Shown: piece after piece, positions 5,082-58,695 of the stretch
Layout of the letters: each line of letters begins with the position of its first letter
Position numbering within the stretch: position 1 is the stretch's first letter
Position numbers and translations under genes: made by a program
The notes under the pieces: model-generated
Told to the model about the DNA's origin: nothing
Seen by the model: the letters and a program-made list of their open reading frames with translations, nothing else
The model's database searches: none
IMG/VR virus record: IMGVR_UViG_3300020731_000011
DNA: 64,000 bases
Strand: one strand, 5' to 3'
DNA from: a virus

Positions 5082-5084
5082 TTG

Positions 5085-5093
5085 TATATTTAT
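5085..5093 (+). promoter_or_regulatory. ATATTTAT(A/T) box, a recurrent putative phage (late) promoter
   Basis: also at ~6684, 8593, 13040, 21394, 32054, 34914, 47924, 55851, 57854, 59368, 61618 and 62723, each shortly upstream of a gene or RNA start. Confidence 0.6.
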
Positions 5094-5118
5094 TATTACG
5101 AAGAAAAAAAACTAACAT

Positions 5119-21353: not shown

Positions 21354-21414
21354 TAAAAAATATTCTTAAAATATACATCATAAATATTTTATGTATATTT
21401 ATAGATAAAGAAAT

Positions 21415-33174: not shown

Positions 33175-34470
33175 ATGGCAGACTTATTCCAAGATCCTAG
33201 ACAGGCTCTTAAGGATCGTAATGCTAAATTAGTTATTCCAGAATCTAAAATAAGAGAGGCTATAAATCATAGTAATTATATTTATAAAGCCGCTGCATAT
33301 CTTAATGTATCTACAGATAGATTTAAAAATTACGCAAAAAAATATTTAGATCCAGATACTGGGTTAAATCTTTTAGAATTACAAAATAGAAATTTACTTT
33401 TAGCTAAAGCTCAAGAAATAGGTAAAAAACCAATAAGAACCTATAAAAGCTATCATGATAAGAATGAGTTTACTGAAGAGGAGATAAGATATGCGATGTC
33501 TGTTACTTTATGTAATAAACAGGCTGCAGAAATTTTAGGGGCTTCACCATATGTATATAAGAAATGTGCATCTGCTATTATAGATGAAGAGACTAAATTA
33601 AGTCTTTTTGAAATACAATATCAAAAGTGGAAGAAATACTCATTTGAAAAGTATAAACTAAGAAAAGAGAAATTTAAAAATTACGATCCTCAAAAGGCGG
33701 CTGAAATAAAAGAGAAATGGGAAAAGCAGAAATTCACATCTGAAAATCTCCCACCAATGAGCGAGCGCCCAGATAATTGGAAATATAAAGGACTTGAATT
33801 ATCTGAAGAGATTATTCGAGGCGCTATGCGTAATACTAGGTCTAATAAAGAGGCGGCTCAATGGCTGAGAGTATCATATAAGACTTGGAAAAAGTATGCA
33901 AAAATGTATATTGATCAACAGACGGGTAGATCTTTATTTAATTTGCATTTATCAAATGGTACAGGTATACCAAAAGCAAGAACTAAAAAGACTAAAAATA
34001 GTTTTCAATTTGTAGAATTAGGATATCAATTAATTAAAGGTCAAACTGCCACTCCTAAAAGAATTGATCAATTAGCCTCAAGACTTATGAAAGATGGTAG
34101 ACTTGGATATTCTTGTAGTGAGTGCGGATATTGTTCTAAAAGACCTATTGATATGAAGATGCCCCTAATGATAAATTTTATCAATGGAGATCGTTCTGAT
34201 TGGACTGAAAGTAATTTAAGATGGGTATGTTATAATTGTGCTTTTATACTAGCTTTAGATTTTACTAATAGAAATAAACGACAAATATTACAAGGTACTG
34301 CTCCAGAGTCTCCAGATGCACCACAAGAATCTGAAAGCTTTTATAAAATAGATGATTTTTATTTAGAACATCTTAAAAGTTTGGGAATTGGACAATTAGC
34401 AGAAAAAGTTCAAGAGCCTATAAAAGATGATAAAAATCCACTACCAGAAGATCTTATAGATTACCAATAG
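33175..34470 (+). CDS. three tandem Fis-like HTH units plus a degenerate HNH/zinc domain
   Basis: three repeats of E..IR.A......K.AA..L..S....K.YA....D..T..SL; C-terminal CSEC...NFINGD...NL.WVCYNC. Confidence 0.65.
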   Translation: MADLFQDPRQALKDRNAKLVIPESKIREAINHSNYIYKAAAYLNVSTDRFKNYAKKYLDPDTGLNLLELQNRNLLLAKAQEIGKKPIRTYKSYHDKNEFTEEEIRYAMSVTLCNKQAAEILGASPYVYKKCASAIIDEETKLSLFEIQYQKWKKYSFEKYKLRKEKFKNYDPQKAAEIKEKWEKQKFTSENLPPMSERPDNWKYKGLELSEEIIRGAMRNTRSNKEAAQWLRVSYKTWKKYAKMYIDQQTGRSLFNLHLSNGTGIPKARTKKTKNSFQFVELGYQLIKGQTATPKRIDQLASRLMKDGRLGYSCSECGYCSKRPIDMKMPLMINFINGDRSDWTESNLRWVCYNCAFILALDFTNRNKRQILQGTAPESPDAPQESESFYKIDDFYLEHLKSLGIGQLAEKVQEPIKDDKNPLPEDLIDYQ

Positions 34471-37966: not shown

Positions 37967-38197
37967 AAATATTTTATAAAAAGTTTTTTTTATCAAAAAA
38001 TAGTTGTACTTTTACATCATAATAATTAACTCACCACCCATGCGCCACTCTAAGATATTCACCACGGATGAAGTCCATTCGATAATGAAAGGTAAGATGA
38101 CCGCTTTTTATGAGGTGGTTAAACCGCAGCAAACCGTATTCGTGAACAGCTAAAACAAGGTAAGTAACCCGCAAGTAGCGGATAAAAAATAGGGAAT

Positions 38198-42362: not shown

Positions 42363-42620
42363 TATAACCTACTCATATACCTCCTAATTCCTCATAATCA
42401 CAATGTAAAAGTACACCTTATTTTTGACACTTGACACTATTTTCTAGTATATTTGTTTTTATAATATCGTCTAAAGTCAGTCGCAGAGCGGAGTATACCC
42501 ATCCTCGGTAAGTAGCTCCGAACCTTTCAGTGATTGCTGGCGTTGCAATTTGATAGGGTAAAAGTAAAAGAAATACCTGACACTTAGAAATTATTTATCA
42601 GGTATTTCTTTTTTTAATGT

Positions 42621-42944
42621 CTAGATCTGTCCTGACCTAGTAGCGAGAAATAGCAGATCATTGAGCTCGATCATTGCCTGATAGGCCGCTGATTTTGAGT
42701 GGGCTCCTATGTGAAACTCTATAGGCTCATTCTTATCCAACACTCTGCCCTCTTTCCAGTCATATATTGTGAATACCTCGCCAAGATCATTTTCACAATC
42801 CCAGTCAAAGTTGGTTTTATCCTTGCCAGTATTGTATTGGCCTTGAGGCTCTCCTATAATATGTATAAGATCATTTACTGAGCATGTCACTGTGTGACCG
42901 CCGAATGTTGTTCCGCCTGTAGATTTGTTTGTTAGCTTTGCCAT
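42621..42944 (-). CDS. hypothetical phage protein
   Basis: own minus-strand cassette ending CAACTAAAAATTATG. Confidence 0.7.
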   Translation of the reverse strand: MAKLTNKSTGGTTFGGHTVTCSVNDLIHIIGEPQGQYNTGKDKTNFDWDCENDLGEVFTIYDWKEGRVLDKNEPIEFHIGAHSKSAAYQAMIELNDLLFLATRSGQI

Positions 42945-43084
42945 AATTTTTAGTTGTTTATTATGATGTAAAAGTAAGACAATGATTTGACACTTGAAAG
43001 AAAATTATCGTATATTTGTTTTTATAAATTAGCAAAACAAATACTTGTAAAAAAACTACCTACTTTAGATTATGTGTTGTATAT

Positions 43085-43986
43085 TTGCCCTACACAAAAC
43101 AACTAAAAGATATGATAAAAACAATCGAAATGGATTGCATTCCATTCACAGACAATCAAAAGGAAGATCAAAAATTCTGGGGCATTTTAAAGCAAAAGAA
43201 TATATTGCTGAATATTATAACTTGGAATGGTCCAGGAGGAGGATGTCCAGTAGTAGAATTTACAGGATCAGATGAAGATCTGCGTTATATATTGGCTGAG
43301 ATATTCTATGCTGATGAGAATGATATTGCAATGTATATGGGAGAGGAATAAATTACAAAAACAAATACTTGTAAAAAAGCCACCTACTTTCAACTTTATT
43401 TTATACTTTTACACTACAATAAACAACTAAAAGATATGAATAACACATCAAAAATCACAGTAAATGGACTTACATTCCATTTCTCTTACACTACATTAGT
43501 GGCAATAGAAGATTCATCTATTCGAGTAGTACATAAAAACATTTGGAGTCGTACTACCGCCAAACATCTTAATAATATAGATGGTGGATGGATAATGAAT
43601 CGAGTTAATGCTGATGAATTTAATAGGGTAGTGTTGCAAATGTGCGCTGCTCATGGAGTGGATTCAATACCCACTTTAAACTAAAAAATATCTGACTAAA
43701 AGCTTTATATTCTCAAAATAATCTCTTACTTTTACATCACACTAAACAACTAAATACAATGGCAAAGACACTCACAAATAAACAGACACTTACAAAGATG
43801 ATTAACTCACTCGACCCTATCCAGTTAGGAATACTTAGAGAGAGGATACTCGCGATGACAGAGAATATATTAGAGAATGAACAGGAGATTCGTAAGTCTA
43901 TGGAATCAGAAGGCAAAAGGTCAATGATACATCCAGACTACTACTTCCAGACGATGGAGTCAATCAGAATCACAATGGAGTATTAA
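43085..43986 (+). CDS. three small cassette-driven ORFs (~43114-43351, 43436-43684, 43759-43986)
   Basis: each starts immediately after a cassette leader. Confidence 0.65.
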
Positions 43987-44059
43987 GAAAATAAATACCT
44001 GAGATAAAAGTACAAAGTCTCAGGTATTTTTCTTATCTTTACAATCTCAAAATAATAAC

Positions 44060-44599
44060 ATGGACCACAAACATATACACGAACTAATTGCCGGCTGTAA
44101 AAACAACGATAGGCAGTGCCAGGAGGAGGTGTATAAATACTACTATCCAAATATGCGCCAGATGCTCTATAAATACTTTAAAGATATTAGAGACTTAGAT
44201 GAGGTAATCAATGATGGGTTTCTCAAAGTATTCAAGAAGATAGATTCATACCAAGGTATTGGCTCTTTTGAGGGCTGGGTGAGAGTGGTGATTAAGAATA
44301 CGGCTCTCAATACTATTAAGTCTCCAAAGCATAAAGATATTACTAATGATAGGGTAGTACTTGCTGAGATTAAAAATATGTGGAGATCAGTGGCTTATAA
44401 TGACAATGGGGAATATGAAGCGGCAAAGCAGTTTGAGATTGCTATATCATTGCTGCCTAAATCCTCTGAAAAGGTGATGAGACTTGCATCTATTGGATAT
44501 AAATATCGAGAGATAGCAGATATGCTAAATACAGCCGAAGGCACAATTAAATGGCATGTTGCAAAATCAAGGCAAAAACTGAGCTTTTTATTATCTTAA
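44060..44599 (+). CDS. ECF-type RNA polymerase sigma factor
   Basis: LIAGCKNND..CQEEVY, D..N.GFLKVF..I, F.GW...V..N.AL, Y.EIA.ML...EGT.KW...KSR. Confidence 0.88.
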   Translation: MDHKHIHELIAGCKNNDRQCQEEVYKYYYPNMRQMLYKYFKDIRDLDEVINDGFLKVFKKIDSYQGIGSFEGWVRVVIKNTALNTIKSPKHKDITNDRVVLAEIKNMWRSVAYNDNGEYEAAKQFEIAISLLPKSSEKVMRLASIGYKYREIADMLNTAEGTIKWHVAKSRQKLSFLLS

Positions 44600-44673
44600 A
44601 ATAAATGTAATAAAAAAGTGCAAATTATCAAAAATTAGTTGTACTTTTACATCACACTAAACAACTAAAAGAT

Positions 44674-44913
44674 ATGACAACTACAGAAGCATTCAAGGCA
44701 TTTAGAGCTATTGCAGCGGACAAACTCACTACCGAGGAGATATTTAAAATTTATGACATAATCTCTGCAGCTAATATGGGGGGCTGGGAAGAAGGTAGGA
44801 AATCTATGTTATCAATATATGCTCCTCATGTATATAAAATTCTCTATCCAGAGCAAGAGACTCCGCTTAATTTAATACCTGGATTTATGGGTACGGAGAT
44901 AGCCGTAAAATAA
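44674..44913 (+). CDS. hypothetical protein
   Basis: cassette-driven ORF. Confidence 0.6.
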   Translation: MTTTEAFKAFRAIAADKLTTEEIFKIYDIISAANMGGWEEGRKSMLSIYAPHVYKILYPEQETPLNLIPGFMGTEIAVK

Positions 44914-44995
44914 AGAACTAGTGGTTGTGAGTGACTAATATACAAGGTACCGCTATAGGGAAAGACATATAGTATATTGTGGAACTCTCAAATTT

Positions 44996-45081
44996 GGTCA
45001 GGTGGTGCAATTGGTAGACAACTGGTAGATGGGTTCGAATCCATTACAGTAGGTATGTAGGTTCGAATCCTACCCCGACTA
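44996..45081 (+). ncRNA. tRNA-like RNA with the anticodon arm replaced by a second T-arm-like hairpin
   Basis: GGTCAGG/CCCGACT acceptor, Leu-type D-arm TGGTGCAATTGGTAGACA, two GGTTCGAATCC loops. Confidence 0.65.
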
Positions 45082-45168
45082 CTTAATAAGAAAATAAATA
45101 TCTGATTAAAAACTTTTTATTTTCAACTTTATTTTATACTTTTACACTACAATAAACATCTAAAAGAT

Positions 45169-45672
45169 ATGAACACATTTGTAATTAAAAAAGAACACTT
45201 AAATACAGAAAATTACTATATTGGTAAAGAGGATTTAAGTAATTATCAAGGAAATATAGAATCAGATAAGTATCTTGGAATAATAAAATTCTACAATACT
45301 TTAAAGGCTACTGGTTATATAAATTTTGGATTTGGCAGTGGTATTCAAGCTGATGGGAGTATTAAAGCTGGTTGGAATATTCAAGCTGATGGGATTATTC
45401 AAGCTGGTTGGAGTATTCAAGCTGGTGGGAGTATTCAAGCTGGTGGGAGTATTATTTGTAAAGGAGATCTATCAAGTAAATTGAGAATATTTGCAGGATT
45501 AACCACTTGGAAAATACCCACTCGAGAAGAAATGCAAATAAAAGTAGGCAAATTAGTAGAAGGTAAAATATGTTATGGCGAGCTAATTGAGACTGGATTG
45601 CCAAAAGAAGATTGTTGTGAAAATAAAATAGTGGAGATAGACGGAAAAAAATACCAATTAAAAGCTTTATAG
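45169..45672 (+). CDS. hexapeptide-repeat (IQAGxS) beta-helix protein
   Basis: GIQADGSIKAGWNIQADGIIQAGWSIQAGGSIQAGG. Confidence 0.7.
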   Translation: MNTFVIKKEHLNTENYYIGKEDLSNYQGNIESDKYLGIIKFYNTLKATGYINFGFGSGIQADGSIKAGWNIQADGIIQAGWSIQAGGSIQAGGSIICKGDLSSKLRIFAGLTTWKIPTREEMQIKVGKLVEGKICYGELIETGLPKEDCCENKIVEIDGKKYQLKAL

Positions 45673-45754
45673 TAGAAAAACAAATACCTGAGATAAAAGT
45701 ACAAAATATCAAAAATTAGTTATACTTTTACATCACACTAAACATCTAAAAGAT

Positions 45755-45850
45755 ATGAATATTAAAGAAATAGCATTATTATTAGCAGGAGGCGCTATCT
45801 GCGCGTTTCTTATTTGGTTGGCAATGTTTATTATTGCCGTAGTTGGATAA
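45755..45850 (+). CDS. 31-aa single-pass membrane peptide (not in ORF track)
   Basis: MNIKEIALLLAGGAICAFLIWLAMFIIAVVG directly after a cassette leader. Confidence 0.6.
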   Translation: MNIKEIALLLAGGAICAFLIWLAMFIIAVVG

Positions 45851-45926
45851 AAAATATCTGACTAAAATCTTTATATTCTCAAAATAATTTCTTACTTTTA
45901 CAGCATACTAAATAACTAATAGCAAC

Positions 45927-47592
45927 ATGGGATTTTTCAGCTGGTACACACAAGACACAGGCGAATCAATCGCCAATAACTACTCATCCAGACCAACATT
46001 TACTGTATTTATGGTAGATGATAAGGGGAATAAATGGAGAGAAGATGACTATGAAGGATACGGAGTATTCGGTGGCAAGGATTATTTTCAACTTCTTGCT
46101 GAGATGAATGGTATCGCAATAGGAGATCTGGACAAAGACAGAGATGCGGGCATAGATCTTGCCTTTAAAGATTCTCCAGAAGGAGATAATCCAAATTGCA
46201 AACATCCAAATCTAGTAGAAGATCCTAATTGGGAATGGAAGAATGACTATCCAGAGTCTTGCCCAAATCAAGGTTATTTTTATGAGGACGAGGACGAGGA
46301 TGAAGAGGAGTGGTATGATGTAGATGATGAGGCATGATAGTAGAAAAACAAATACCTGAGATAAAAGTGCAAAGTCTCAGGTATTTTTTATACTTTTACT
46401 TGAGGCTAAATGAATTTGCCTCTCAAAATAACTAAAACATATGTATAATCTTTCAAAATCACAAAGCTCAATCACAGCCAAAGTAGAAAGCTTAATAGGT
46501 CGTATGGACAAGATGACAGAGGTGGATATTAAATCTGAATTCATTTCTGTTCTAAATGATCAAGAAACTTCAGTAAGTGATAAGACTAGAGCTTACTGGA
46601 TTAATGAGATCTCAAAATGTAAAAGCAAAATAGCTCTTATGTTTTCTATTACTAATTTACACCTTGCTGGCTGCGATCTTAGATTAAATCCAAAGAGGGA
46701 TTAATATAAAAAATATCTGACTAAAAGCTTTATATTCTCAAAATAATTTCTTACTTTTACTTGAGGCTAAATGAATTTGCCTCTCAAAATAACTAAATAC
46801 AATGGCAAAGACAATAATCACGCTCGATCCAAAAGCACAAGTACACGGAAATGGAAAAAATTTGTATGCAGTATCAGTATCTAATATTGATGATGATTTT
46901 GGAGATTCCGTTATAACTCTGATAAAAGCTGATAGCGAAGATGAGATATATGATGATGTGTTTTATAAATATGGAGATGATATGGACCAGGATGAGTTTT
47001 ATGAATATTGGCAAATAGCAATTACACTCATAGGAAAAATATCATAGTAGAAAAACAAATACCTGAGATAAAAGCTTTATATTCTCAAAATAATCTCTTA
47101 CTTTTACTTGAGGCTAAATGAATTTGCCTCTCAAAACAACTAAAAGATATGAGCACAGCACAATCATTTACACTACCTAATACACAAGTATTCTGTAAAG
47201 AGGTAGATCCAGCAAAAATCACTCTCGCAATTAAATATTTGCGACTACTTGGTGTACCAGTCTATAATAATACTAGAGAATATGATTCTGAATATCCTTA
47301 TATCATGTTTGATAGAATTTTGATGACTCAGACTAATGAAAATTGGATTAATAATAATGATTGCAAATCTGTAAATACAGTAGAGGAATTTGTAGCCCTA
47401 TTTGAAGGTCATAAATCAATTAAAATTGAACACGTAACCTCATCTAATTACACTGCAGAAATAGATAGTAATGGTATCAAAGTTGGCTGTCAAGATGTAA
47501 TTATCCCAGCATTTCTTGAAGTGATAAAAGCAGCTATGACATATAAACTGATCACTCTTGAAGACATCACTGCAGATCATCAATATGAATAG
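45927..47592 (+). CDS. four cassette-driven hypothetical ORFs (45927-46337, 46441-46704, 46802-47047, 47149-47592)
   Basis: each starts at a cassette leader. Confidence 0.65.
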
Positions 47593-47679
47593 TAATTTTA
47601 CAGAATAGATAATAAAGTGAGTATAATATTCTCTCCTCTGCTCACTTTAATGCAAAATAATTCCTCCCTTGGCATTGAG

Positions 47680-47706
47680 AGTCCTCTAGAAATAGGGGAT
47701 TTTTTC
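47680..47706 (+). terminator. intrinsic terminator
   Basis: TCCTCTA-GAAA-TAGGGGA followed by a T-run. Confidence 0.65.
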
Positions 47707-47939
47707 TAAACTTGCTAAATAGATTTTATTTTCTATTCTATATTATATATAATTGTATTATGGATTTTATCTTTGAGTGTACTATAGAATTAAAAAACAG
47801 ACAGAGATAATATCCGCGTCTAGTTCATTATTGGCACAGGAGATGGTTATAGAAAAATTTGGATATTCTTCTAAACTTTTATATATAAAATTTCTACTTT
47901 GAACGAAACGAGAGAAAAATCATGATATTTATTACAGTA

Positions 47940-48340
47940 CGAGAGCATGTAAGGTGTGACGACCAAAATACTCAATACTATAATTTAGTTTAAATTTTTT
48001 ACATTCAATATTCAGGGTCGTCACCATAGGGCTTAAAAGCCACCTGAAAAAATTACAGCGCTTCTCTTTAGAGGCGCTTTTTTTATGCCTCAATTCACAG
48101 GTGGTGGTAGAATACCTGGTAAATATAAACTACTAGACTTCAATTGTAAATGATTGTTGGATCTGGTCAATTAAATCTTACAGTGATGGCCCTGGTTACC
48201 TTTTGAATAATTTCGGACTGAACGCATGCCCGCGCTAGGACGCCCATCGGTAAGTCGTGAATGCAATCTGATTTTTATCAATATTGTAAGATCACATATA
48301 ATTACTATTAAATTATTCATCTATAAGGGCGGGTGATATA
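47940..48340 (+). ncRNA. unclassified structured RNA or leader region
   Basis: stems GTGACGACC/GGTCGTCAC, GCCACCTG/CAGGTGGT, ATCTTACA/TGTAAGAT, CGCCC/GGGCG; ATATTTAT box at 47924. Confidence 0.4.
48057..48084 (+). terminator. intrinsic terminator-like hairpin
   Basis: AGCGCTTCTC-TTTA-GAGGCGCT followed by TTTTTT. Confidence 0.7.
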
Positions 48341-48640
48341 TTTAATTATATTCTATAATATAGGCTGACTCTAACAGAGAGAATTCTGGAGAATATACTA
48401 AAAAAACTTGACTAATAGAAAATTTAAAGTTAATCCTACCTACTCCAGATAATAAAAAGAAATAACTACAAAGTATAATAAAAAGAAGACTAAGAAATAT
48501 AAATCTACTCCAGAAAACTAATATAGTATTAGGGGGTTATAGGGGACTCCCCCCATATTATAAGAACAAATATCTAATTTAGGACTTTATTATTTGAAAA
48601 GTATCTCTTACTTTTACACTACACTAAACAACTAAAAGAA

Positions 48641-49615
48641 ATGTCAAATCAACTAAGTTATTCTCAAAGGTATTATGCACAGCTAAAAGCTAAACAACTT
48701 GGTATCTCAGTAGATGAGTACCTTACATCAAGAGGTCGTTTACTAGTAAATGGTGAAATTAAAGTAGTAGATAAGAAGCCAATATCATTTGATAAAGTCA
48801 AGTCACTTGATGCTATCAATGTAAATGATAATATGCTAAAAACATATAAGAGTGGATTGGCAATTGATAAACTTATCTCATATGAAGGTGGCCTGCCAGT
48901 TGGTACAAATATAATGTGTACCGGAGATCCAGGTGTTGGGAAAACAACTGTTCTATTGCACACCTTAGCACATATGCAAAAAAATAATCCAGATCTGAAA
49001 TGCCTGTTTATATCATGTGAAATGGGCAAAATACAACTTTTCAAATATATGCAAAGATTTCCTGTATTTGGTTGTGTTAAGACTTTGATTGCAGCCGATT
49101 ATCTTAATGATAATATGAAAGATGTGATCGAGGGCCTGCTTAAAGAAGGTTATGACTATGTGCTTATTGACTCTCTCGCAGAAGTTCTTGAGTCAGTAAA
49201 AGAGAATACTAGTATGAGTATTAAAGAGGCTGAGAAGTGGATAATTGATTTGTGCATTAATCATAATGAGGGCCAGAATGATCGCAAAGCCTACACATCA
49301 TTTTTACTTATCCAACAAGTTACTAAAAACGGTACTTTTGTAGGTAGTAATAAAGTAAAACATTTAGTTGATGCACACATGGAAATGAAGAGAGAGAAAA
49401 TGTCTGATGGTGGTGGCACATATATAGTATTCACGAAAAATAGGAATGGTCAATCAGATAATAAATGGAGCTATCAATTATCAAATAACGACATACATTA
49501 TGGCTATATAGTAGATGAAGCCGAGAATGATGCCTCAGACGCTACAGACAATATCCCAATCCAATTTATAATTAATCGTAGTGGTGCAGATTTGGAATTA
49601 GGCATATTAAATTAA
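48641..49615 (+). CDS. RadA/Sms-like RecA-fold ATPase
   Basis: GDPGVGKT, IDSL, G.FVGSN.VKHLVD, KNRNG. Confidence 0.8.
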   Translation: MSNQLSYSQRYYAQLKAKQLGISVDEYLTSRGRLLVNGEIKVVDKKPISFDKVKSLDAINVNDNMLKTYKSGLAIDKLISYEGGLPVGTNIMCTGDPGVGKTTVLLHTLAHMQKNNPDLKCLFISCEMGKIQLFKYMQRFPVFGCVKTLIAADYLNDNMKDVIEGLLKEGYDYVLIDSLAEVLESVKENTSMSIKEAEKWIIDLCINHNEGQNDRKAYTSFLLIQQVTKNGTFVGSNKVKHLVDAHMEMKREKMSDGGGTYIVFTKNRNGQSDNKWSYQLSNNDIHYGYIVDEAENDASDATDNIPIQFIINRSGADLELGILN

Positions 49616-49694
49616 AGAAATAAATACCTGAGATAAAATTATAAAGTCTCAGGTATTTTTCTTACTTTTACACTACACTAAACAACTAAAAGAT

Positions 49695-49895
49695 ATGGCA
49701 AATATAACAGCAGATCGCAATGGAGCATTTAAACTTCTTGATATACTCAGAGATGAGTGGGATATGAGCGACAAAGAAATATTAGAATATCTAGTGTATA
49801 ACTGGATGAGTGGCTCAACAGCTTATCAGGCTATGGTAGATACTTTTGAAGAATATGACTTGTCTATACCAGGCAAAGAAAAAGATATGGAGTAA
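49695..49895 (+). CDS. hypothetical protein
   Basis: cassette-driven ORF. Confidence 0.6.
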   Translation: MANITADRNGAFKLLDILRDEWDMSDKEILEYLVYNWMSGSTAYQAMVDTFEEYDLSIPGKEKDME

Positions 49896-49978
49896 AAAAA
49901 TATCCTCTAAAAAGTTTTTTTAAGTCAAAACAATCTCTTACTTTTACATCACACTAAACAACTAAAAAAATAACAGTT

Positions 49979-50812
49979 ATGGAAAATCAAACAGTTTTAG
50001 CGCAAGGCAACAAGAACAATCAGATCTCAGTAATGTCACTCGAGTCAGCAATCCAACGAGCACCTGGTATCTCAGCTCCAGGTCCACATCCACGCCTTAG
50101 CTCAAATTATAAGTTTGTATCTTCTAAGGACTTGATAGAACATCTCGATAGTCAAGGCTGGCAGCTTACAAATGTAAAGCAGTCAAAGAGCAAAAATGAC
50201 AGCTCTCTCTACACTACCTATGGCACTCATATCATGCATTTCCAAAATCAAGATCTCTATATGAAAGATGATCGCGGAGGTATTGAAGGTCGTCCAGAGA
50301 TAGTTGTAATTAACAATTCTAATGGTGATCGTCCTCTTCAGATTGAAGCCGGCATTTTTAGGTTGGTATGTAGTAACGGGTTGGTAATCAAGACTCAAGA
50401 CTTTGGCTCAATGAAAGAGCGTCATATCAAATACACTCAGGCAGAGATTAAGGATATAGTCAGCCATAAGATAGTAGATATGGAGCAGGCTGTAAATAAG
50501 ATCAATACCTGGAATATGATTGAAATGACAGACAAGCAGCGTTTTCAATTTGCAACAGAGGCTCTGGCCCTAAGACTGTCAGATGATCGTCTTCCAGAGC
50601 AATATGAAATACTTGATTTGCTGCAGCCTAGACGTAAAGAAGACACTGGCAAATCTTTGTGGCTAACCTATAATGTTATACAGGAAGGCCTGGTTAAAGG
50701 CGGTTTTTCACTCAATAATCGTGAGGCGCGTGCCATTAAAAATCCAATCGCAGAGCTTAATATCAACCAGGACCTATGGACTTTGGCTGAAAAATATGAA
50801 ATTATAAAATAA
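49979..50812 (+). CDS. DUF932/DUF945-family protein
   Basis: NSNGD, GIFRLVCSNG, H....., LW..YN..QE. Confidence 0.8.
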   Translation: MENQTVLAQGNKNNQISVMSLESAIQRAPGISAPGPHPRLSSNYKFVSSKDLIEHLDSQGWQLTNVKQSKSKNDSSLYTTYGTHIMHFQNQDLYMKDDRGGIEGRPEIVVINNSNGDRPLQIEAGIFRLVCSNGLVIKTQDFGSMKERHIKYTQAEIKDIVSHKIVDMEQAVNKINTWNMIEMTDKQRFQFATEALALRLSDDRLPEQYEILDLLQPRRKEDTGKSLWLTYNVIQEGLVKGGFSLNNREARAIKNPIAELNINQDLWTLAEKYEIIK

Positions 50813-50835
50813 GTTGTGTTGTTTAGTTGTAGAAG

Positions 50836-50861
50836 AGGCTCACATAATAGTGGGCCTTTTT
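50836..50861 (+). terminator. intrinsic terminator
   Basis: AGGCTCAC-ataata-GTGGGCCT followed by TTTT. Confidence 0.75.
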
Positions 50862-50962
50862 GATATATAGAATATCATAGTACAAAAATAAATATTTGAC
50901 TAGAAGCTTTATAATCTCAAAATAATCACTTACTTTTACATCATACTAAATAACTAAAAGAT

Positions 50963-51667
50963 ATGACACCGTATAAATTAACTGACGAATCAATACAATT
51001 TAATGATAAACCACTCTACCGTATTGAACTAACTGAAGATTGTAAATGGGGCAAAGCTGGAACAAAAGGCGGCTTTATCGAGACGATAAATAACTTAACC
51101 GAAAATGCCTGGGTATCTGGTAATGCTCAGGTATTTGGTGATGCTAAAGTATCTGGTAATGCTCATGTATCTGGTAATGCTAAAGTATCTGGTAATGCTT
51201 GGGTATTTGGTAATGCTCAGGTATATGGTAATGCTAAAGTATCTGGTAATGCTTATGTATCTGGTAATACTTGGGTATCTGGTAATGCTAAAGTATCTGG
51301 TAATGCTCTGGTATTTGGTAATGCTCATGTATCTGGTGATGCTAAAGTATCTGGTAATGCTAAAGTATCTGGTGATGCTAAAGTATCTGGTAATGCTCAT
51401 GTATCTGGTAATGCTCATGTATCTGGTAATGCTCTGGTATATGGTAATGCTAAGGTTGAGAAGACATCAGATTATATGACAATATCATCTTTAGGAGAAA
51501 TAAGTAGGATAATCACCATCACATTCTCCAATAAAATGATATCGGCTGGCTGTTTTAGAGGCACACTCGAAGAACTTAAAGCCGCTGTTGATAAAAAATA
51601 TCAAGGCAGAGGTAATTATTACCCAACAATACAGTATATAGAAGCCCTGTTTAATTCAATAAATTAA
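50963..51667 (+). CDS. left-handed beta-helix (VSGNAx hexapeptide) phage protein
   Basis: YRIE...G.KGGFIE head domain, 19 hexapeptide units, C-terminal GCFRGT.EE. Confidence 0.85.
   Translation: MTPYKLTDESIQFNDKPLYRIELTEDCKWGKAGTKGGFIETINNLTENAWVSGNAQVFGDAKVSGNAHVSGNAKVSGNAWVFGNAQVYGNAKVSGNAYVSGNTWVSGNAKVSGNALVFGNAHVSGDAKVSGNAKVSGDAKVSGNAHVSGNAHVSGNALVYGNAKVEKTSDYMTISSLGEISRIITITFSNKMISAGCFRGTLEELKAAVDKKYQGRGNYYPTIQYIEALFNSIN
51113..51454 (+). repeat. 19 x 18-nt tandem repeat GTATCTGGTAATGCTnnn
   Basis: counted directly from the sequence. Confidence 0.9.
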
Positions 51668-51746
51668 GGGAAAAAATATCCTCTAAAAAGTTTTATTAAG
51701 TCAAAATAATCACTTACTTTTATAGTATAATAAATAACTAGAAGAT

Positions 51747-52288
51747 ATGACGCCAAAATTTAAAATCGGAGATAGTGTAAAGCTAGTAACAAAGCAAAGT
51801 AAATTTTATAATTATTCATTGGATTTTATAGATCTCGACTGCCTTCAACTTGGAGAAATCTATGAAGTGGACCATGTTAATAATAATGGCGTAGGTCAAT
51901 CTGATGATTTTATACTACTCAAAGGATATGATTATAATCATCCAGTAGATTGCTTTGAATTATATGAAGATTGGGTACCAAAGACTGGAGAACTGGTAGA
52001 AGTATCAAATAATAAAATAACTTGGCTGGAAAGAATATATCTCTACTCAACACCAAATAGAAATTTACACTGGACAGTGTAATAGAAGATGATGAATCAG
52101 ATTATAAAGCAAGTAAAGATCATAATACGTCTTATTGGAAGTATATACGACAACTTAAAGTTAAAGAGGTGCCTACCGCTGAAAAATTACTAGGTGATAT
52201 AAATAATGCATATCTCCATGCTATAGAAGGCAAATTCTCTATGAGCGACCTGGTGGCAAGTATTAAGCAGGTGCTAGCAGAGTACTAG
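51747..52288 (+). pseudogene. paralog of 53186..53701 with a frame break at ~52080
   Basis: MTPKFK.GD.VKLVTKQSKFY shared; after GTG-TAA the -1 frame continues VIEDDESDYK...WKYIRQLK, which matches WPYIRKPK in the paralog. Confidence 0.6.
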
Positions 52289-52432: not shown

Positions 52433-52681
52433 ATGAAAAGCCTAATCTTAATCGCTTTAAGCACCATTTTAATAACTTCCTGTGGACCCGCGCTCGGTTT
52501 CGATGATGCTGCATGTGCCAAAAATGCAAGGGGTACATATCCGAGGTGTAGAATATATGTCATTCAACCTCACTATGAGTACTTAGTTGTGGACTCTGCA
52601 GGTAATGTTAAAAAACTTGTCTATGGCAGCACCTCAGAGGCTAAAATTACTAGCATTCAAGAATATGTTGAAATAAAATAA
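52433..52681 (+). CDS. lipoprotein
   Basis: MKSLILIALSTILITSC lipobox. Confidence 0.65.
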   Translation: MKSLILIALSTILITSCGPALGFDDAACAKNARGTYPRCRIYVIQPHYEYLVVDSAGNVKKLVYGSTSEAKITSIQEYVEIK

Positions 52682-52690
52682 TCAAACAAT

Positions 52691-52942
52691 ATGAAAAGAG
52701 CACTAATCGCGGTATGTATGATAATAAGCGCCGCCTCATGTAAATGAATGTCAGCCGACTATGAATCTCGTTCTACTGGAGTACGAAAAGTGTGTCCAAC
52801 TTGCACCTTTGTCACATCAGAAGGAGAATACTACGCACAAGACACCTCAAAGCGTCCAAACATCATCTACAAAGTTTACTTTAAAGGCGGAATGTTCTTC
52901 TACGATGCGAGTACTGTCGATCACCTGATAAGAATCAATTAG
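52691..52942 (+). pseudogene. lipoprotein with an in-frame TGA (52745-52747)
   Basis: MKRALIAVCMIISAASCK*MSADYESR...; same frame as track ORF 52748..52942. Confidence 0.55.
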
Positions 52943-53185: not shown

Positions 53186-53701
53186 ATGACACCAAAATTT
53201 AAAGTAGGAGACAAGGTAAAGCTAGTAACAAAGCAAAGTAAATTTTATAAAGACGGATCACTATATATCGATCATGATAATCTTCGACTTGGAGAAATCT
53301 ATCAAGTAAGTGGAATTTCTAATAATGGTAATCTTGATTGGGATAATATGTTTATAATCATTAAAGGGTATGTTTATGATCATCCAGTAGATTGCTTTGA
53401 ATTATATGAAGATTGGGCGCCACAAGAGGGAGATTTGGTAGAAGTATCAAATGATGGTATTAATTGGGATAATCGTATATTCCTATATTCAACTAAGAAT
53501 AAAGCTTCTTCACATATGTGTATTAGTAATGAATGGGAAGAAAGATATAAATCTGGTCAATTTATTAGTGGTTTTCACATAGCCACTTGGCCCTATATTC
53601 GTAAGCCCAAACAAATAAAAATTACCATTGAGGTAGATGGCCAAAATAAAACACCAAAAGATTTTACAGCTGCTCAATGGGTGGCATTTAGAAATAAATA
53701 A
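53186..53701 (+). CDS. hypothetical protein (KOW/SH3-like repeats)
   Basis: KFKVGDKVKL and EGDLVEVS motifs. Confidence 0.65.
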   Translation: MTPKFKVGDKVKLVTKQSKFYKDGSLYIDHDNLRLGEIYQVSGISNNGNLDWDNMFIIIKGYVYDHPVDCFELYEDWAPQEGDLVEVSNDGINWDNRIFLYSTKNKASSHMCISNEWEERYKSGQFISGFHIATWPYIRKPKQIKITIEVDGQNKTPKDFTAAQWVAFRNK

Positions 53702-54289: not shown

Positions 54290-54775
54290 ATGAAAAAATC
54301 TATAATAAGATTAACTCCTCAAGAGGCAGATCAATATATATCTAAAACTGATGATGTATTGGATTATCCAGCTGCATATTTTACTATAACGCCATGTACT
54401 ATTCCAGGTATGGAAGACTGGGATGATGTCACATATTATACCTCTAGACGTAAATCATATTCTAATGATCTAGGCTCTGGAAGATATTGGATATATGTGC
54501 TGTCAAATCAATCTATGCCAAATCTGCTAAAAATAGGTTATACAAAACAAGATCCTAAAGACAGAGCTCAGCAAATATCATCTGCTACTGGCGTGGCTAC
54601 TCCTTTTATTGTAGAGTATATTTTCAGATGTAATGAGGGTGAATTTTTAGAAAGTGAAATACATAAATATCTAGATCAATACCGAGTTTCTAATAATAGA
54701 GAATTTTTCAATATTGATTTACCTACAGCAATAGAAGCTATTACAAGTTTAGGAAAAAAATATACTACTACTTAG
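54290..54775 (+). CDS. GIY-YIG T5orf172-domain protein
   Basis: WIYVLSN.SMP.LLKIGYT...R..Q.SSATGV.TPF, E..IH..L, REFF. Confidence 0.85.
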   Translation: MKKSIIRLTPQEADQYISKTDDVLDYPAAYFTITPCTIPGMEDWDDVTYYTSRRKSYSNDLGSGRYWIYVLSNQSMPNLLKIGYTKQDPKDRAQQISSATGVATPFIVEYIFRCNEGEFLESEIHKYLDQYRVSNNREFFNIDLPTAIEAITSLGKKYTTT

Positions 54776-56061: not shown

Positions 56062-56145
56062 AATTTAAATAATAAAAAAATAAAAATACTTAAAAAAGCT
56101 TTAAAATATCAAAAATTAATTTTACTTTTATAATATCAATAGGAA

Positions 56146-58560: not shown

Positions 58561-58695
58561 AAGATATACTAATAAATAATCAAAATCTTTTAGTACTTTT
58601 ATAGTATAATACTCAAATAAAAATGATAGGCGAAAAAGGGGCTGATAACAACAAGAAAGATGTTGATAACCTACTATCATTTTTTAAAATTATAT

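Follow-up and report, generated by a model that had tools for sequence, protein, structure and literature searches.

The region described here lies in a window of 64,000 nucleotides from the IMG/VR virus record IMGVR_UViG_3300020731_000011. It carries an array of small genes, each preceded by a copy of a composite intergenic repeat that we call a unit or cassette. The record consists of a single linear contig (75.6 kb), for which CheckV gives a completeness of 48%. The window contains replication, nucleotide and glycosylation genes, 16-19 tRNAs and a tmRNA; no virion genes were found in it. The closest cultured phage is Flavobacterium phage vB_FspM_immuto (NC_055915, 160 kb; hereafter immuto). 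Its gene layout is alike, amino-acid identity to the window is 50% for the DNA polymerase (PolA) and 34% for DUF932, and megablast of the array against cultured phages gave no match. The source is an Immutovirus-like phage of uncultured freshwater origin. A 75.6-kb fragment at 48% completeness implies a full size of about 157 kb, so that the term jumbo phage, used in a preliminary description of this DNA, is not supported.

Between 43030 and 51746, each plus-strand gene has one unit upstream of it, making 16 intergenic units of 73-103 bases, and three further units lie on the minus strand at 42405-43029 (Table 1). An array of plus-strand cassettes, each abutting the preceding stop codon, had been reported, and the array is real. 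Its units number 16 rather than about 17, and 13 of them abut a stop codon; the other three sit after extra non-coding DNA, namely a tRNA-like gene, a 1-kb non-coding stretch and a terminator. Looser, promoter-only copies are found at 37993, 42091, 54794, 56109 and 58580. Two interruptions of the array were noted: a weak tRNA-like gene at 44996-45081 (Rfam 33.5 bits; ARAGORN makes no call) and a stretch of about 1 kb, 47600-48560, that is poor in open reading frames (ORFs).

When the units are aligned on TACTTTTAC, they show, in order, a stop-codon context (C)ATAGTAG, an A-rich segment, an AAATAY box, a variable middle, T.TCAA, eleven bases of any sequence, the promoter-like box TACTTTTA(C/T), a leader and the ATG. 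AAATAY and the promoter-like box are, with few exceptions, 41 bases apart. A box of its own is present in each cassette; it takes the variant form TATATTTG in unit 1 and TATCTTTAC in the unit of the sigma factor gene. The leaders are A-rich and without a Shine-Dalgarno sequence; they are of the type ATCACACTAAACAACTAAAAGAT or of a form bearing a GAGGC...GCCTC hairpin. The pattern TCA-N11-TACTTTTAY has 21 matches against 0.17 expected, all upstream of ORFs or tRNA clusters. The 15-mer YAACTAAAAGATATG has 15 matches at two mismatches or fewer against 1.5 expected. A common cassette ending had been claimed, and the 15-mer is indeed enriched; as an ending with at most one mismatch it is present in only 11 of the 16 units, the rest closing with AACTAAATACAATG or with other A-rich leaders.

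Table 1. Units, dispensable modules and promoter-only copies (designations with L refer to related sequences compared with the window; aa, amino acids)
Feature	Coordinates	Strand	Description
Minus-strand promoter-like unit	42405-42470	-	5' box and TCAAAA-N8-TACTTTTAC; no ORF of at least 30 aa behind
Minus-strand hairpin unit	42558-42620	-	AAATACCTGA...TCAGGTATTT hairpin before TACTTTTAC; no ORF of at least 30 aa behind
Minus-strand unit	42945-43029	-	serves gene 42621-42944; half of a divergent promoter region
Unit 1	43030-43111	+	canonical TATATTTG, 41 bases from AAATAC; in L007/L044 an added 91-aa gene flanked by a 26-base leader repeat
Unit 2	43352-43435	+	no hairpin; precedes 82-aa gene
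Unit 3	43685-43758	+	no hairpin; middle CTTTATATTCTCAAAATAAT; left partner of the 43755-44641 deletion
Unit 4	43987-44059	+	hairpin; precedes ECF-type sigma factor gene 44060-44599
Unit 5	44600-44673	+	middle TATCAAAAATTAGTTG; right partner of the 43755-44641 deletion
Unit 6	45088-45168	+	after tRNA-like gene; left partner of the 45174-45719 deletion
Unit 7	45673-45754	+	hybrid: 5' hairpin arm, no 3' arm, unit-5-type middle
Unit 8	45851-45926	+	inside module 45743-46336
Unit 9	46338-46440	+	upstream 13-bp hairpin, -16.2 kcal/mol, z -5.7; leader hairpin GAGGC..GCCTC
Unit 10	46705-46801	+	leader hairpin; upstream hairpin absent
Unit 11	47048-47148	+	hybrid at AAAAG: unit-9 5' arm, unit-3/10 middle; spacing 42 instead of 41
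Unit 12	48560-48640	+	precedes RecA/RadA-superfamily ATPase gene 48641-49615
Unit 13	49616-49694	+	upstream hairpin, -16.1 kcal/mol, z -6.6
Unit 14	49896-49978	+	precedes DUF932 gene; unusual leader end AAAAAAATAACAGTTATG, which also accompanies the DUF932 gene in the relative L003
Unit 15	50880-50962	+	precedes beta-solenoid gene 50963-51667
Unit 16	51668-51746	+	insertion hot spot
Dispensable module	43755-44641	+	75-aa gene, unit 4, sigma gene; absent from L007 and L044; crossover in 28 identical bases
Dispensable module	45174-45719	+	167-aa repeat protein gene and 5' part of unit 7; absent from L004, L007 and L044; crossover in 12 identical bases at the box
Dispensable module	45743-46336	+	31-aa and 136-aa genes, unit 8; absent from L035; crossover in shared 5' part TAGTAGAAAAACAAATACCTGAGATAAAAGT
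Dispensable module	46433-46707	+	87-aa gene; absent from L004; crossover in ~46 identical bases, box and leader hairpin
Dispensable module	47050-47588	+	unit 11 and 147-aa gene; absent from L006, L007 and L044; junction ATAGTA, 6 bases common to both stop-codon contexts
Promoter-only copy	56109-56131	+	TCA-N11-TACTTTTAT; ahead of gene 56146 and a tRNA cluster
Promoter-only copy	58580-58602		ahead of tRNA-Met

Several units are mosaics of others. As had been noticed from the letters, the unit at 47048 joins the 5' part of 46338 and 45673 to the middle of 43685 and 46705 through AAAAG, and the unit at 45673 combines a 5' part of the 46338 type with the middle and leader of 44600. A plain AAAAG join of the two parent types also predicts the spacing of 42 bases at 47048. 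The units at 49896 and 51668, described as near-identical, are so over their first ~50 bases and not beyond. Pairwise identities of 5' part, middle and leader are uncorrelated (r = 0.05, -0.03 and -0.05), which means that the parts of the units assort freely and not along one duplication tree.

The hairpins of the cassettes have 11-base loops and were missed by the standard terminator scan; they were folded directly. In the units at 43987, 46338 and 49616, a 13-bp hairpin with a T run behind it lies between the AAATAY box and T.TCAA, and the three fold at -16 kcal/mol with z of -5.6 to -6.6. One minus-strand unit has a weaker hairpin (-8.1 kcal/mol), three more copies have leader hairpins, and no upstream hairpin was found in the remaining units folded. 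An identical orphan 5' arm, AAATACCTGAGATAAAAG, stands without its partner in the units at 45673 and 47048. Such an arm has no obvious use and is the expected leftover of a crossover in the loop. In the related lineage L002, the stems co-vary (CCTGAG/CTCAGG becomes CCCGAG/CTCGGG and GCGGG/CTCGC); that they persist although both arms have changed is an argument for a functional hairpin in the units that have one.

The box, TAHHTTTA in its general form, matches seven of the eight positions of the Bacteroidota -7 element. In Flavobacterium johnsoniae, this element reads TAHHTTTG, transcription starts 4-5 bases downstream of it, and Shine-Dalgarno sequences are not used (PMC6847099). Five of its six invariant bases (T-12, A-11, T-8, T-7, T-6, G-5) are matched in all copies, and sigma-70-type sites are not enriched (85 vs. 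78). The box also occurs ahead of tRNA clusters, where the start region is lacking. We infer from resemblance and position that the cassettes would act as promoters and terminators with early timing. Another upstream motif, (G)TATATTTAT, stands before some genes outside the array (~125, 5082-5118, 21354-21414) and may mark a second promoter class.

The same features bear on the host. Shine-Dalgarno-like tetramers precede 2 of 84 genes, against 9.5% of random 15-mers, and A makes up 65-74% of the bases at positions -10 to -14 before genes, except at -12 (50%). Such a pattern, poor in Shine-Dalgarno sequences and rich in A upstream, has been described for Bacteroidota (PMC6847099). Together with the box and the Flavobacterium phage as nearest cultured relative, it makes the Bacteroidota host proposed at the outset plausible, and a host from this phylum is likely, to judge from these sequence features.

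The behavior of the units was followed in metagenome contigs that are 95-100% identical to the window at the nucleotide level. About 12 gene-sized rearrangements distinguish the strains, and in 10 of the 12 a breakpoint lies inside a unit. Units make up 8% of the 19.3 kb compared, which gives P ~4e-7 or less for 10 events out of 12 at units. The idea of recombining modules is borne out in that near-identical strains differ by gains and losses of genes bounded by units, leaving hybrid units behind. At each deletion (Table 1), the remaining unit is an in-register hybrid, made of the upstream part of the left unit and the downstream part of the right one. Deletion crossovers fall in identical stretches of 12, 28, 31 or ~46 bases, or in the six bases ATAGTA, and all junctions have 6-74 shared bases. 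Their place in the cassette varies and may be the 5' part, the box, the leader or the stop context.

Extra unit-plus-ORF modules also occur. L007 and L044 have one at 43077-43102; L006 carries, before 48641, an extra unit with a 100-aa gene and a 40-base repeat; and L004, L006 and L007 carry between one and four such modules after 51722. In L019, the module starting at 45720 is joined to unrelated DNA via another unit. The modules at 45169 and 47149 occur in all four combinations of presence and absence, which implies repeated events or exchange between strains. Amplification of one gene, as the word accordion in the preliminary description would imply, was not seen. L007 has unrelated sequence in place of 48090-48554, ending exactly at the next cassette. 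Outside the cassettes, a 28-base start-region repeat without a promoter, ATAATCAAACAATATGAAAAGA, which includes the start codon, lies at 52672-52699 and bounds the insertion of a 177-aa gene in L004-type strains; short repeated start regions are on this evidence also crossover sites.

The arrangements recur. That of the window is found again in L011-L014, L029 and L038, that of L004 in L022-L027, and that of L007 in L044 at 99.9% identity. Both JGI assemblies and ENA MEGAHIT assemblies made with 141-base words contribute to these recurrences. They bear on the idea that the strain differences are jumps of short-read assemblers between repeated cassettes, an idea that draws on the fact that cassettes are repeats of the kind that confuses assemblers and that many short contigs end at them. 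It is nevertheless very improbable: the 6-74 bases shared at the junctions fall short of the final MEGAHIT word size of 141 bases, the same junctions are reproduced in separate contigs such as L044 and L007, each arrangement is seen in 2 to 7 or more contigs, and the variants carry genes absent from the window, which a collapse of repeats cannot create.

Relatives at a greater distance were sought by pattern. A strict 35-base pattern added one contig, L003. A looser three-part pattern gave 74 loci, of which ~56 with a single match are probably due to chance and were set aside. With the RecA-like ATPase as query, viral contigs yielded one distant match (L010, 29% identity), which was not used. 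Five further lineages keep the unit architecture with genes permuted or inverted; their DUF932 is 59-78% identical in amino acids, or ~70% in nucleotides. Gene order among relatives, proposed early on as a check, is hence permuted and not invariant. With homologues named by the start of the window gene, L009 and L001 have the RecA-like gene, 42621 (inverted with respect to the window), 49695, 46802 and DUF932. L002 has 43759, 45927, 44674, 46441, the sigma gene and DUF932, and L065, L093 and L118 have 43759 (inverted), 43112, 44674, the sigma gene, DUF932 and 45169; in L002 and L065 the sigma gene stands directly before DUF932. L051, with 15 units in 10 kb, shows a different gene order again. 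Across lineages, identity of the cargo proteins is 37-90%, which indicates that the cargo consists of real genes. Leaders are 0.83-0.91 identical within a genome and 0.37-0.67 between genomes. This pattern amounts to concerted evolution, as expected if the units keep exchanging sequence.

In immuto, a 6.2-kb stretch at the syntenic position (67.6-73.8 kb) carries 16 head-to-tail cassettes before small genes, all on one strand and of a type particular to this phage. They are of the form TATNTTTAGNTATCAATAATTAAAA, and in several a GC-rich hairpin separates the TTG from the box. As in the window, the box has the TAHHTTTA form, the cassettes lie head-to-tail before small genes and some carry GC hairpins. 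They differ by their sequence, AAAGTTGC...TATATTTAGGTATCAATAATTAAAA, and by a normal TTG ~20 bases upstream. In the searched literature, no description of promoter repeats or cassettes of such kind was found for Bacteroidota phages, immuto included.

Our preferred reading, to which we give a probability of roughly four in five, is that the repeats serve an Immutovirus-like phage in two ways, as composite regulatory cassettes in its variable small-gene region and as crossover sites for general homologous recombination. A cassette with an intact hairpin would end upstream transcription, as a terminator or attenuator. The promoter T.TCAA-N11-TAHHTTTA would start the next gene, probably with the host RNA polymerase, and the A-rich leader of ~20-40 bases without a Shine-Dalgarno sequence would supply the start region. 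Some 20 head-to-tail cassettes with identical stretches of 12-75 bases would offer dispersed homology to the general recombination of the phage. Exchange between cassettes of one molecule would delete the intervening genes and leave a hybrid cassette; exchange with a co-infecting relative, or re-entry of an excised circle, would insert or swap cassette-plus-gene modules, and inverted units would permit inversions. Each product should be viable and correctly expressed, since a complete terminator-promoter-start unit is rebuilt at the junction. The recombination part of this model is well supported; the recombination enzyme and the circular intermediates are parts that we infer.

The model follows a mechanism proposed and partly demonstrated for the promoter-early stem-loop cassettes (PeSLs) of T4-type phages (PMC2839356, PMC4122927). 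These were described in phi1/RB49, PST/T4 and nt-1/KVP40 (Arbiol et al., 2010, PMC2839356; Comeau et al., 2014, PMC4122927), with activity demonstrated, along with mini-circles, excised circular DNAs that bear a single gene and a single chimeric cassette. The PeSL analogy, drawn from the start, fits in structure, position and comparison of relatives (PMC2839356). In both systems, a cassette comprises an upstream stop codon, an AT-rich region, a promoter, a variably placed stem-loop, a start region and a start codon. In the window, an alignment of 33 cassettes from four lineages gives a composite motif of this kind, in which the promoter is recognized by resemblance only. In both, the motifs cluster in a hyperplastic region, ahead of small genes without assigned function; the strong copies of the window all lie at 36-59 kb, in the variable region with its small genes, and none lies within the replication, nucleotide and glycosylation modules. 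Both also show motif-bounded differences between close relatives, chimeric motifs and no dedicated recombinase, here within the 75.6-kb record. Indels bounded by cassettes, with chimeric cassettes, were found here, and the hybrids were mapped base by base.

The differences are equally clear. The two kinds of cassette have no sequence similarity, and the phage lineage (Immutovirus-like here) and the host phylum are not the same. The window cassettes have a Bacteroidota-like TAHHTTTA promoter in place of a -35/-10 pair, no Shine-Dalgarno sequence, and a full hairpin in ~1/4 of the copies, others having orphan arms or a leader hairpin. The evidence for them comes from natural populations (metagenomes), whereas for PeSLs it comes from two isolates, with activity and mini-circles shown. 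PeSLs belong to T4-type myoviruses with sigma-70-type early promoters; here the nearest relative is an Immutovirus and sigma-70 sites are not enriched, so that the cassettes are functional analogues of PeSLs and not members of the same element family.

Comparison with integrons leads elsewhere. Like integron cassettes (attC/IntI), the window has arrays of single-gene modules in one orientation, a repeated boundary element and variation by presence and absence, and a RecA-superfamily ATPase and DUF932 are encoded within the array. A site-specific system with a dedicated recombinase, using the cassettes as attachment sites, might be read into this. It is highly unlikely, in that the crossovers fall at varied places in the cassette, every module has its own promoter, and no attC-type folded site or integrase was found. 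No match to the tyrosine or serine recombinases PF00589 and PF00239 was obtained in the 75.6-kb record, which is about half (~48%) of the genome. The label integron-like is not supported for these reasons. As for the proposed helpers, the product of gene 48641 is a RecA/RadA-superfamily ATPase, for which a recombination role is possible from its family; no link between DUF932 and recombination was found, and a literature search on DUF932 function yielded nothing relevant. A MITE-like (miniature inverted-repeat transposable element) or transposon-like element was also considered and rejected: there are no terminal inverted repeats and no target duplications, and junctions lie in shared sequence.

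Several points weigh against cassettes that combine regulation with homologous recombination. The rearrangements are scored relative to the window and not as directed gain or loss. All strain contigs are short-read metagenome assemblies, and some of those from ENA and JGI may share lakes or reads. No circular intermediates were seen among the short contigs recovered, which are all collinear with the genome. The 5' box is conserved even in units without a hairpin, which the model does not fully explain; this AAATAY box may bind a protein or act as an upstream element of the promoter. A replaces the nearly invariant G-5 in all copies except unit 1. A TTG-type -33 element is not conserved about 19-21 bases upstream of the box; T.TCAA stands 11 bases upstream instead. 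The -33 element is weak in F. johnsoniae too (PMC6847099). The A at -5, the missing TTG and the conserved T.TCAA and distal box leave uncertain which polymerase or sigma form reads the box. Finally, two of the 12 events (52672-52699 and 55783) are away from promoter cassettes.

The latter two events are what would be expected if the cassettes were only regulatory and illegitimate or nuclease-driven breaks occurred anywhere, with only intergenic junctions being viable. One junction has just six shared bases, and genes for homing-type nucleases are present (T5orf172 at 54290, HNH at 33175). This explanation is improbable, if somewhat less so than an assembly artefact: the hybrid cassettes keep exact register, no base being added or lost, the crossovers lie inside the longest shared stretches (12, 28, 31 and ~46 bases), and both the homogenization of leaders within a genome and the free reassortment of segments need exchange from cassette to cassette.

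The deviations of the box from the Bacteroidota element leave some room for another view of the promoter, with the same recombination role. The cassettes would be middle or delayed-early promoters under phage control, read by the host polymerase with the phage ECF-type sigma factor (44060-44599) or with an activator at AAATAY. The A at -5, the missing -33 TTG, T.TCAA at its fixed distance, the rigidly spaced distal box and the presence of the sigma gene inside the array speak for this view. Against it, the sigma gene itself stands behind a cassette of the same kind (TATCTTTAC) and would need another reader first. It belongs to a dispensable module, and is absent from the array in L007 and L044, where the cassettes are unchanged. 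The box of unit 1 is canonical, and in immuto a normal TTG lies ~20 bases ahead of TATATTTAG in the cassettes. A sigma gene that lies behind a unit of the same kind and is missing from a strain type with unchanged units weakly favors the host polymerase, and control by the phage is a minority possibility.

Beyond crossover sites for general recombination, the cassette might be a selected gene-exchange platform of a lake Bacteroidota phage clade. AAATAY, T.TCAA and TAHHTTTA, with their 41- and 11-base spacings, would form an undescribed promoter class read by a phage-modified polymerase, and circles would move genes, even that of the sigma factor, between co-infecting lineages. A hint in this direction is an L003-type cassette found upstream of a 165-aa gene in L006. 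We consider this extension speculative and rather unlikely.

To our knowledge, the only phages for which gene shuffling mediated by promoter cassettes has been documented so far are the T4-type phages of Proteobacteria, on the basis of isolate pairs. The same shuffling logic is seen here in a lineage whose hosts belong to another phylum and whose cassettes are unrelated in sequence, and it can be tracked in natural lake populations, with about a dozen events among strains 95-100% identical, the loss of a sigma factor gene among them. The finding suggests a general strategy, reached by convergence, in which expression signals double as recombination sites at which large lytic phages exchange accessory genes. 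The principle is already known; its convergent reappearance, the record of events at the population level and a cultured relative make the case useful. Since immuto, cultured on Flavobacterium sp. LMO8, carries an array of its own, the idea can be tested at the bench. The consensus also describes probable early promoters of Bacteroidota phages and may help their annotation.

The cargo itself says little. Most cargo ORFs belong to no family (Pfam, PHROGs), and protein-atlas look-ups of genes 45927 and 47149 returned nothing usable; the label of anti-defense or host-takeover genes is a guess. The minus-strand units at 42405-42620, which have no ORF of at least 30 aa behind them, may drive small RNAs or very short peptides. 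Ahead of gene 50963, the cassette retains at 50868-50900 the gene-end context ATATCATAGTAC, as at 47036-47050, yet no gene ends there; it looks like the footprint of an earlier neighbor. The beta-solenoid gene 50963-51667, with YdcK/bactofilin-type repeats that are also present in 45169-45672, encodes 150, 204, 210, 216, 228, 234 or 240 aa among near-identical strains, and this variation in repeat number is separate from the cassette events. Genes 51747-52082 and 53186-53701 are paralogues whose products start with MTPKFK, and a third copy is found in the extra modules of L006 and L007.

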